The translations under genes were made by a program, and so were the position numbers. A DNA stretch of 64,000 nucleotides from a virus. This document shows, piece after piece, positions 10,785 through 13,021 of this stretch (its first letter is position 1; every line of letters begins with the position of its first letter). The notes under the pieces were generated by a model. That model made no database searches. It saw only the letters and a program-made list of their open reading frames with translations, and was not told the DNA's origin. Location of the stretch: positions 32,001 through 96,000 of IMG/VR virus record IMGVR_UViG_3300033182_000538, one strand, 5' to 3'.

Positions 10785-10853
10785 TACTAATGTAATGAAA
10801 AAAGCTTAGACTGCCAAATTCTAAATGTTAAAAAAATGTTAAAAAAATGTTAA
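10785..10853 (-). promoter_or_regulatory. Promoter with three TTAACA boxes at 11-bp period
   Basis: tgttaa at 10826, 10837 and 10848; TTTG...TACATTAG downstream on the minus strand. Confidence 0.65.
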
Positions 10854-12073: not shown

Positions 12074-12088
12074 ACTTTTGGACTTTTG

Positions 12089-12251: not shown

Positions 12252-12323
12252 AGCGGAGAGGTGGCTCTGCCCCACCATCTTCGTACTGGAAGTACAACGA
12301 GTTTCTCTTAACTCCTCCCCCGC
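12252..12323 (-). tRNA. Non-canonical tRNA-Gly(TCC)-like RNA, copy B
   Basis: GCGGGGG AG GAGT TAAGAGAA ACTC G TTGTA CT-TCC-AG TACGA AGAT GGTGG GGCAGAG CCACC TCTCCGC T. Full cloverleaf with an atypical core. Confidence 0.8.
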
Positions 12324-12329
12324 ATTGTT

Positions 12330-12415
12330 AGGTAGTAATAGCCGGTAACCCATACTTTAGGCAAGGCCTTTAGCAATCGATGTAACGGCTTTATCCACAC
12401 CTTTAATTACTACCT
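12330..12415 (-). ncRNA. Candidate structured RNA (~86 nt) between the two atypical tRNAs
   Basis: Perfect 10-bp closing stem AGGTAGTAAT/ATTACTACCT, stacked AGCCG/CGGCT, and an inner AGGC-CTT-GCCT hairpin. Confidence 0.45.
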
Positions 12416-12418
12416 TTG

Positions 12419-12490
12419 AGCGGGAGGTTGGTACTGCCCCAACACCTCCTATCTGGATGATAGGCGACTTTCTTTTAAGTCTTCTCCCGC
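12419..12490 (-). tRNA. Non-canonical tRNA-Gly(TCC)-like RNA, copy A
   Basis: GCGGGAG AA GACT TAAAAGAA AGTC G CCTAT CA-TCC-AG ATAGG AGGT GTTGG GGCAGTA CCAAC CTCCCGC T. All four stems are perfectly paired. Confidence 0.8.
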
Positions 12491-12496
12491 ATTTAG

Positions 12497-12846: not shown

Positions 12847-12910
12847 AACTTTACAATTTAGTCTTATATAAATAGTTTATTCAAATTTAATAAACATAGT
12901 ACTTTATTTG

Positions 12911-13013: not shown

Positions 13014-13021
13014 ATATCTTG

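Follow-up and report, generated by a model that had tools for sequence, protein, structure and literature searches.

A phage family of tRNA-Gly paralogs with a rebuilt core, candidate glycyl donors for Mom-type DNA hypermodification

In staphylococci, the non-proteogenic (NP) tRNA-Gly species NP1−NP3 serve as glycine donors for FmhB, FemA and FemB; S. aureus FmhB has to compete with EF-Tu for Gly-tRNA and recognises the NP species by their D and T arms (PMC7826273). In phage Mu, Mom glycylates N6 of adenine in double-stranded DNA with Gly-tRNA-Gly as the donor, and the adduct rearranges to N6-carbamoylmethyl-dA (Silva et al., Nat Commun 2026, PMC13219725; preprint 10.1101/2023.03.24.534169). 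Mu Mom uses all three E. coli tRNA-Gly isoacceptors and not Gly-tRNA-Ala, its residues R111 and S124 were shown to be essential, and its authors pointed to possible harm from co-opting translation (PMC13219725). Phage-encoded tRNAs are not mentioned in that paper, and we found no literature linking them to Mom. Here we describe two tRNA-Gly(UCC) genes with a rebuilt tertiary core in a 64,000-nt window, bases 32,001−96,000 of the 166,988-bp IMG/VR virus record IMGVR_UViG_3300033182_000538 (35.7% GC; CheckV completeness 87%), together with the family to which they belong. From sequence comparison we propose, with a probability of roughly 0.5, that these odd tRNAs are dedicated, translation-insulated glycyl donors for Mom-type DNA hypermodification.

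Both genes lie on the minus strand, at window positions 12419−12490 (copy A, type A) and 12252−12323 (copy B, type B). Each is 72 nt long including the discriminator base U73, and neither encodes CCA. The minimum free energy (MFE) fold is a cloverleaf for copy A (−31.1 kcal/mol, z = −4.4) as well as for copy B (−27.7 kcal/mol, z = −2.0), which confirmed the two cloverleaf genes and the exact span, 12252−12490, given in an earlier interpretation made without database searches (hereafter the sequence-only reading). Copy A combines the T-stem GUUGG/CCAAC with the anticodon loop CAUCCAG, the T-loop GGCAGUA and the D-loop UAAAAGAA; in copy B, the corresponding elements are GGUGG/CCACC, CUUCCAG, GGCAGAG and UAAGAGAA, and GG is absent from the D-loops of both. 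Other features listed in the sequence-only reading were verified in the same way: the identity set of glycyl-tRNA synthetase (GlyRS) in both copies (G1-C72, C2-G71, G3-C70, C35, C36 and U73), the altered core (A8/U14, the two D-loops and T-loops above, C32/G38), A33 in copy A, and U51-A63 in both copies as opposed to C51-G63 in the neighbouring tRNA-Gly(GCC). The rejection by tRNA finders that it had predicted was also observed, with ARAGORN calling neither copy at the default or even the permissive threshold (-ps80), and a search with Rfam RF00005 left both unmatched at E ≤ 10. The A15-U48 pair, said to be retained, is present in the window; across the family described below, this pair is not conserved, A15/A48 being found in 64 of 112 sequences. 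The possible G19-C56 pair held up in all 112.

A first search of IMG/VR used a pattern built from loop positions only, with the stems left unconstrained, and recovered 23 viral contigs. The stem cells of its 14 unique sequences were 100% paired and 10 of the 21 pairs showed compensatory double changes, while pairing fell to 45−59% when the 3′ partners were slid as a control. The stem pairing of the family is far beyond chance. We built the covariance model R1 from this first set, ran a second pattern with the anticodon left free and added a metagenome scan. The family figures given below (n = 112) refer to at least 112 unique core sequences from at least 126 loci among the matches listed, namely 50 viral loci, at least 75 metagenomic loci (TARA Oceans, coastal, estuarine and freshwater) and the window itself; copies A and B score 98.2 and 92.6 bits to R1, respectively. 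The stem cells of the family are paired in 2350 of 2352 cases (99.9%). Thus, building a covariance model and searching related contigs, as the sequence-only reading had recommended, recovered a large covarying family. No family member was found by BLAST of 50,697 GenBank phage records. The family pattern gave six matches in 185,579 cellular species genomes, which we attribute to chance because the covariance model rejected every one of them. On these searches, the family appears to be confined to phages.

The acceptor positions G1-C72, C2-G71, G3-C70 and U73 and the anticodon positions C35 and C36 are invariant in 112/112 sequences, as are the altered core (A8/U14, A18/G55, G19-C56 and G54/G58) and the U51-A63 pair; A37 is found in 111. 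With the exception of G19-C56, the canonical core of U8-A14, G18-G19, T54-Ψ55-C56 and A58 was replaced in every sequence, and a purine stack G58-A18-R57-G19-C56 takes the place of the canonical A58-G18-G57-G19-C56. G19-C56 is the exposed pair recognised by RNase P, RNase Z, the CCA enzyme and the ribosome (PMC4810234). Acceptor pairs 4−7, the middle pair of the D-stem, the whole anticodon stem and the pair 50-64 covary freely. The anticodon is invariably NCC (UCC in 97 sequences and ACC in 15), even though the search pattern had left it free. The invariant acceptor and anticodon positions coincide exactly with the identity elements of bacterial GlyRS, and their invariance is best explained by selection on the charging reaction. 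The sequence-only reading had interpreted the deviations shared by the two copies as selection rather than decay; this was borne out by 112 sequences in which the altered core is invariant and the stems covary, and the random loop changes in homologs that it had named as the opposite outcome did not occur. We regard the RNA family, its structure and its glycine identity as secure.

Some members of the family are intermediate in form. Type C third copies (L025:4964−5035, L043:5445−5516, L072:784−855 and L141:1051−1122) already contain A8/U14 and the odd anticodon loop and have a near-canonical T-loop. In two closely related pairs of type C sequences, a D-loop GG is found with U55 (T-loops UUCAAAU and UUCAAUU) and AG with G55 (UGCAAAU and UGCGAUU), which reads as the 18-55 tertiary contact changing on both sides. 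Type D, a more divergent branch present in other Mom-bearing genomes, has U8, a D-loop without GG, a T-loop that is GGCAGCA, AGCGAAA or canonical, and the anticodon loop CGUCCAG or CAUUCCAG. These intermediates indicated that the family was derived from a normal phage tRNA-Gly(UCC), with the fold kept throughout. Anticodon loops of 8 nt (UAUUCCAA and CAUUCCAG), a size associated with frameshift-suppressor tRNAs, were found at L072:706−778, L133:1146−1219 and L037:1−49 and in the type C copies L043:5445−5516 and L141:1051−1122. The ACC anticodon of 15 unique sequences (including L026:6653−6724) reflects about eight independent U/A switches at the wobble position, and one ACC lineage has an otherwise canonical loop, UUACCAA. 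A34 is very rare in tRNA-Gly in nature.

In all loci, the odd elements are co-oriented with the tRNA arrays in which they lie, often at 4−10 nt from canonical neighbours, as in the arrangements Ala, 48 nt, odd, 4 nt, odd, 10 nt, Glu and odd, 6 nt, Gly(GCC). Nearly all tRNA genes of these phages encode CAA or CUA where CCA is expected. C74 follows the discriminator in 137/137 odd elements versus 222/225 canonical tRNAs, and dominant CAA/CUA trailers and a preference for U at −1 are seen alike in both, which suggests that they share a 3′-maturation rule, probably trimming after C74 followed by CCA repair. Neither a class-II synthetase core (GlyRS) nor a CCA-adding enzyme was found in the phage genome, and host enzymes must therefore charge the odd tRNAs and add CCA. 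From comparisons of this kind we infer that the odd tRNAs are expressed, charged with glycine, excluded from translation and used by Mom.

Two regions that matter for translation depart from the canonical tRNAs of the same arrays. U33 is present in 43/112 family sequences (38%; the remainder being A in 65, G in 3 and C in 1) versus 195 of 196 unique canonical tRNAs. The 32-38 position is C-G in 108/112 (96%), U-A in 4 and never mismatched, versus C-G in a single one of the 196 canonical tRNAs; C32-G38 gives a 6-bp anticodon stem closing a 5-nt loop. To estimate the affinity for EF-Tu, we used the additive T-stem model of Schrader and Uhlenbeck (PMC3239215, Table 2). The odd T-stem, consisting of G49-C65, U50-A64 or G50-C64, and U51-A63, has a predicted value of −9.5 kcal/mol. 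The bacterial Gly-UCC class has a mean of −10.8 kcal/mol (sd 0.68), and −9.5 kcal/mol is also the calculated value flagged as abnormal for the staphylococcal NP tRNA-Gly (PMC3239215). As a control, we scored 16 canonical classes from the same arrays, which stayed close to the means of their bacterial counterparts (r = 0.83; average deviation, 0.31 kcal/mol); for the adjacent tRNA-Gly(GCC), with the T-stem G49-U65/C50-G64/C51-G63, the prediction was −10.7 kcal/mol. The deficit of the odd tRNAs should matter because glycine makes the smallest amino-acid contribution to EF-Tu binding (PMC7826273). The sequence-only reading had suggested that the RNAs avoid EF-Tu and the ribosome; the published model supports the former as a prediction (−9.5 versus −10.8 kcal/mol), and the loss of U33 together with the C32-G38 closure supports the latter. 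Exclusion of the odd tRNAs from translation thus appears well, if indirectly, supported.

The odd pair is missing from two close relatives (L199 and L200, with 74−76% identity in the neighbouring protein). In L200, Ser(UGA) is followed 34 nt on by Gly(GCC), L199 is without both, and no canonical Gly(UCC) replaces the pair in either locus. This distribution suggests an accessory element rather than an essential decoder. The glycine codons of the phage are 63% GGT, which is read by the canonical GCC tRNA. Two open reading frames (ORFs) of the full record (G000), at 146,550−150,288 (1245 codons) and 150,307−153,571 (1087 codons), encode 27−30% glycine, mostly as GGT. Glycine-codon demand was rejected as a cause of the two extra UCC genes, the Gly-rich ORFs and the genome being mostly GGT. 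The U/A-only wobble position with its roughly eight switches was likewise dropped as evidence for decoding, since position 33 has the same A/U-only bias and compositional bias therefore suffices.

The sequence-only reading saw no Fem or GNAT partner in the window; this is true, and the candidate partner remained unseen because the Mom genes lie outside the window. Two tandem Mom-family GNAT genes are found at 109,472−110,260 and 110,247−110,999 of G000, about 13.5 kb past the end of the window and about 65 kb from the odd tRNAs. They match phrog_1384 with E values of 8e-48 and 1e-51, no other copies being present in the genome, and align near full length to the Mu Mom structure 8BV8 (E = 3e-11 and 1e-9). 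Both paralogs are 29−30% identical to Mu Mom, and R111 and S124 are kept in both when aligned to the native protein. A third, distant Mom-like ORF (30−37% identity over a partial match, ~210 aa) lies a few kb from the tandem pair in several relatives (G002:132979−133425, G003:139183−139452, G004:130636−130908 and G007:112476−112868), and none is present in this genome. FemAB (PF02388) and Acetyltransf_6 (PF13480) were absent from the 167-kb record, and LPG_synthase_C (the MprF C-terminal domain), Leu_Phe_trans (L/F-transferase) and WbqC from the genome, with working positive controls in each case. The conserved genes flanking the odd tRNAs, which encode vWA/CobT-like, AAA+, Methyltransf_24, P-loop kinase-like, GT25 and MGS-like proteins and small ORFs, offered no partner either. 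Of the enzymes that the sequence-only reading had proposed to look for elsewhere in the genome, the GNAT type was therefore found in the form of the two Mom genes, and the Fem and WbqC types were not; of the acceptors that it had considered for a tRNA-dependent glycyltransferase, DNA gained support from the Mom GNATs, and amino-sugars and lipids gained none.

To score co-occurrence of the two traits, we searched entire records with the RNA covariance model and with a Mom paralog as query. Only near-complete genomes were counted; fragments of 46−63% completeness with an odd tRNA and no visible Mom were uninformative and stayed outside the counts, and sampling on the Mom side covered only fairly close relatives of paralog 2. 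Both traits were present in 11 genomes (G000, G001, G017, G018, G002, G003, G004, G005, G028, G053 and G054), Mom without the odd tRNA in two, and neither in four (G012, Flavobacterium phage immuto, Microcystis phage Mel-JY01 and LR756508); an odd tRNA without Mom was found in none of the near-complete genomes scored. The covariance model detected no family member in Flavobacterium phage immuto or Microcystis phage Mel-JY01, and the tRNA-Gly(UCC) of LR756508 is canonical. Fisher's exact test, which ignores phylogeny, gave p = 0.006, or 0.011 with near-identical genomes merged. In the capsid tree, negative lineages lie on the path between two well-supported clades that have both Mom and the odd tRNA, and the two traits therefore changed jointly at least twice. 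The odd tRNA was lost within one Mom-positive clade and never occurs alone. One-to-one matching of tRNA and Mom paralogs, also considered, was suggestive (2 and 2; 1 and 1 in G028) and not strict.

These findings can be combined into the following proposal. The phage paralogs of tRNA-Gly(UCC) would be transcribed within the tRNA array and would mature as their neighbours do, by 5′ cleavage, 3′ trimming after C74 and completion of CCA by a host enzyme. Since no glycine identity element has been lost, host GlyRS would charge them. Although rebuilt at A8/U14, A18/G55 and G54/G58, the elbow with its G19-C56 pair should allow the L-shape to persist; the anticodon loop, closed by C32-G38, would no longer require U33; and the T-stem would contribute the weakly EF-Tu-binding pair U51-A63. 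Together, the three rebuilt parts would keep the odd Gly-tRNA largely out of EF-Tu and the ribosome. The two Mom-family GNATs would move glycine from it to N6 of adenine in double-stranded DNA, and rearrangement of the glycyl adduct to N6-carbamoylmethyl-adenine would protect the DNA from restriction. With such a private donor pool, many genome copies could be modified without competing with EF-Tu for host Gly-tRNA. The invariant rebuilt elbow could in addition be a recognition element for Mom, as the D and T arms are for FmhB. An extended version, an orthogonal donor system in which the Mom and tRNA paralogs would have co-evolved as pairs, one tRNA type (A or B) per enzyme, with the rebuilt D/T elbow of the tRNA read as a positive determinant, is speculative and we consider it unlikely. 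If it were true, the enzyme-tRNA pairs could modify different contexts or install different groups, outside translation.

Several points weigh against the proposed donor role. Mu Mom probably reads the acceptor end only, so that a special tRNA would not be required, and the two Mom-positive genomes without an odd tRNA (G051 and G052) are consistent with this. The odd tRNA and Mom genes are not adjacent, and copy numbers do not match in G004, where one odd tRNA in the fetched stretch stands against two Mom genes. The co-occurrence counts come from few genomes with phylogenetic structure among them, in which the two traits changed together independently only about twice, and use by Mom would rest on these counts and on the biochemistry of a homolog. 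Calibration of the EF-Tu model relied on canonical tRNAs and on the E. coli and Thermus proteins, and a weaker T-stem is not enough on its own to rule out translation. Finally, the odd elements sit in the slot of a decoding tRNA-Gly(UCC) in T4-type arrays.

A different explanation, which we find doubtful, is that the odd elements are working GGN decoders, with an unusual tRNA-Gly(UCC/ACC) occupying the glycine position of the array. Such decoders might read all four GGN codons via C32 with an unmodified U34 or A34 and would top up Gly-tRNA for Gly-rich late proteins or against the drain by Mom; their altered core would have evolved to evade a host factor directed at canonical tRNA. Their position among U34 tRNAs (Leu-UAA, Arg-UCU, Ser-UGA, Gln-UUG and others) suits a tRNA-Gly(UCC), a canonical version of which is missing from nearly all arrays; A37 and the G19-C56 elbow persist along with the glycine identity set; the genome contains two ORFs of about 30% Gly; and position 32 governs four-way reading by UCC (PMC7826273). 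However, a decoder would hardly be expected to keep U33 in only 38% of its members and to close the loop with C32-G38 in 96%, when the canonical tRNAs of the same arrays do so in 99.5% and 0.5%, respectively, or to include members with 8-nt loops and a wobble position that changed between U and A on about eight occasions. For EF-Tu, the model places their affinity 1.3 kcal/mol short of the class mean, whereas the other phage tRNAs are tuned normally. The 63% of glycine codons that are GGT are already served by the canonical GCC tRNA, and close relatives dropped the pair without a replacement.

A role as decoys or sponges, which would draw off a host defence directed at tRNA-Gly or its glycylated form (for example the toxSAS FaRel2, a GNAT toxin or a tRNA nuclease) and take no part in translation themselves, appears more improbable still. 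FaRel2 selects tRNA-Gly via G1-C72, C2-G71, G4-C69 and Pu5-Py68, and phage tRNAs are known to counter tRNA-targeting defences (10.1101/2024.07.05.602228). The odd family keeps the acceptor pairs read by FaRel2, and its accessory distribution and copy number of two to three would also fit. On the other hand, a decoy for an acceptor-stem reader would not need the invariant C35, C36 and A37, and a decoy for an anticodon nuclease would not need the invariant acceptor end; the full GlyRS set is best explained by charging. Decoys would also leave the exclusive association with Mom unexplained, and we know of no tRNA-Gly-targeting defence in the presumed Bacteroidota hosts. The same low probability applies to the reading that the RNAs supply glycine to a different transferase from an unrecognised family, whose acceptor would be a sugar, lipid, peptide or protein, with the Mom link reduced to shared ancestry. 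The non-ribosomal signature backs a donor role here equally, many ORFs of the genome have no recognisable family, and the phylogenetic independence of the Mom association is limited; yet FemAB, Acetyltransf_6, LPG_synthase_C, Leu_Phe_trans and WbqC were absent while their controls were positive, the conserved neighbours offer nothing, and among the enzyme families of the genome, Gly-tRNA-Gly is a demonstrated substrate for Mom alone. Decaying, functionless tRNA pseudogenes, to which the silence of standard tRNA finders might point, have next to no probability: 99.9% stem pairing, compensatory changes and an altered core that never varies, whether the samples are marine, estuarine or freshwater, form a conservation pattern that excludes decay.

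The array that contains the odd genes is encoded on the minus strand in the order Leu(UAA), Arg(UCU), Ser(UGA), copy A, copy B and Gly(GCC). ARAGORN called all four canonical members, tRNA-Leu(UAA) at 13021−13107 (Rfam 57.4 bits), tRNA-Arg(UCU) at 12910−12982 (53.5 bits), tRNA-Ser(UGA) at 12496−12581, 5 nt upstream of copy A (56.2 bits), and the downstream neighbour tRNA-Gly(GCC) at 12088−12161 (69.6 bits). A structured 95-nt spacer (12324−12418, minus strand) separates copy A from copy B and forms a long hairpin with a 10-bp outer stem, GGUAGUAAU/AUUACUACC. It is kept in related loci, with compensatory changes in 6 of the 10 outer-stem pairs (six loci) and the internal conserved motifs UURAAG, GAUAA and ACCGG-UAU; it is absent from loci in which the two copies lie 4−5 nt apart, and is thus dispensable for the odd tRNAs. 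The 90-nt spacer between copy B and tRNA-Gly(GCC) (12162−12251, minus strand) is structured as well, with two hairpins and an MFE of −32.8 kcal/mol (folded as 12162−12252; z = −5.75, 0/200 shuffles equally stable). Because this gap measures just 6 nt in most relatives, the 90-nt spacer appears to be an insertion specific to this phage. Directly downstream of the array, the ORFs at 10850−11188 and 11441−12085, both on the minus strand, encode a P-loop kinase-like and a Methyltransf_24 protein, which adjoin the array in many relatives too; the kinase-like ORF has an N-terminus of the Zeta_toxin/APS_kinase/KTI12 type and is represented by two paralogous ORFs in many loci. Some related arrays (L007 and L009) include a tRNA-Ile(UAU), an isoacceptor seldom found in bacteria, which fits the all-U34 makeup of these tRNA sets. 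Two GC-richer contigs (L053:6482−6552 and L056:1379−1449) have a T4-like canonical tRNA-Gly(UCC) beside the odd copy; this canonical gene contains U51-A63 and G50-U64, nominally −8.1 kcal/mol, and its anticodon stem is poorly paired by eye.

The phage is marine and T4-like, and its record encodes a T4 gp23-type capsid protein that is nearest to that of Microcystis phage Mel-JY01 (61.5%), followed by the Flavobacterium phage immuto group (57%). The CobS-like and capsid proteins place it near Flavobacterium-phage relatives and away from cyanomyoviruses, psbA was not found in the phage genome, and a Bacteroidota host is likely from these protein affinities.

Until now, dedicated non-proteogenic tRNAs have been known as a speciality of staphylococci, where they serve cell-wall synthesis. 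If the proposed donor role is correct, the same solution arose independently in viruses, and for aminoacyl-tRNA-dependent DNA hypermodification, a process demonstrated only in 2026 and in phage Mu; an EF-Tu-evading pool of glycyl-tRNA would then answer the problem of translation being co-opted by Mom. The odd family also constitutes a natural experiment in which the 'universal' elbow nucleotides were exchanged in step while the fold was apparently kept, and it should be useful for the rules of T-loop/D-loop interaction and for orthogonal tRNA design. Standard tRNA finders miss this family, which is common in marine, estuarine and freshwater viromes, and phage tRNA inventories therefore undercount. 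The covariance model could serve to mark Mom-type DNA modification in uncultured phages.

The tRNA cluster of phage T4 holds a canonical tRNA-Gly(UCC), and the odd tRNAs share with this type the place in the array, the type of acceptor stem and the anticodon. They differ from it in U8/A14, G18/Ψ55, T54/A58 and U33, all of which are replaced in the odd family, and the copies L072:784−855 and L043:5445−5516 link the family to normal tRNA-Gly. Phage tRNAs that counter PARIS and Retron-Eco7 (cited in 10.1101/2024.07.05.602228) resemble the odd pair in that their changes are driven by a non-decoding pressure; those tRNAs are still decoders with small anticodon-loop changes, whereas the core, U33 and EF-Tu tuning are altered in the odd pair. 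Compared with Mu Mom, for which the co-substrate is known to be Gly-tRNA-Gly, the form that the odd RNAs seem made to take, the phage has two full-length homologs with R111 and S124 kept. Mu encodes no tRNA and scavenges any host isoacceptor; here, Mom is duplicated and accompanied by tRNA-Gly paralogs that are seemingly insulated from translation.

The staphylococcal NP tRNAs differ from the phage pair in being encoded by a cell and not a virus, and the two groups have no common descent, as NP tRNAs are confined to staphylococci (PMC7826273) and the phage family has intermediates of its own (types C and D). Their T-loops are UGC/UGU as opposed to GGCRG in the phage RNAs, which further contain A18, keep G19, swap A8/U14 and have lost U33; the phage lacks a Fem enzyme, and its proposed acceptor is DNA adenine instead of a peptidoglycan precursor. 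In other respects the likeness is close. Both are tRNA-Gly(UCC) paralogs present in several copies beside a proteogenic tRNA-Gly, both have lost the TΨC motif and the G18 interaction, and in both the anticodon stem can be extended to 6 bp with a 5-nt loop (PMC7826273). Both also have a weak EF-Tu T-stem with an equal calculated value of −9.5 kcal/mol (PMC3239215), and in both, as we propose for the phage, a non-ribosomal demand for glycine would be kept apart from translation.

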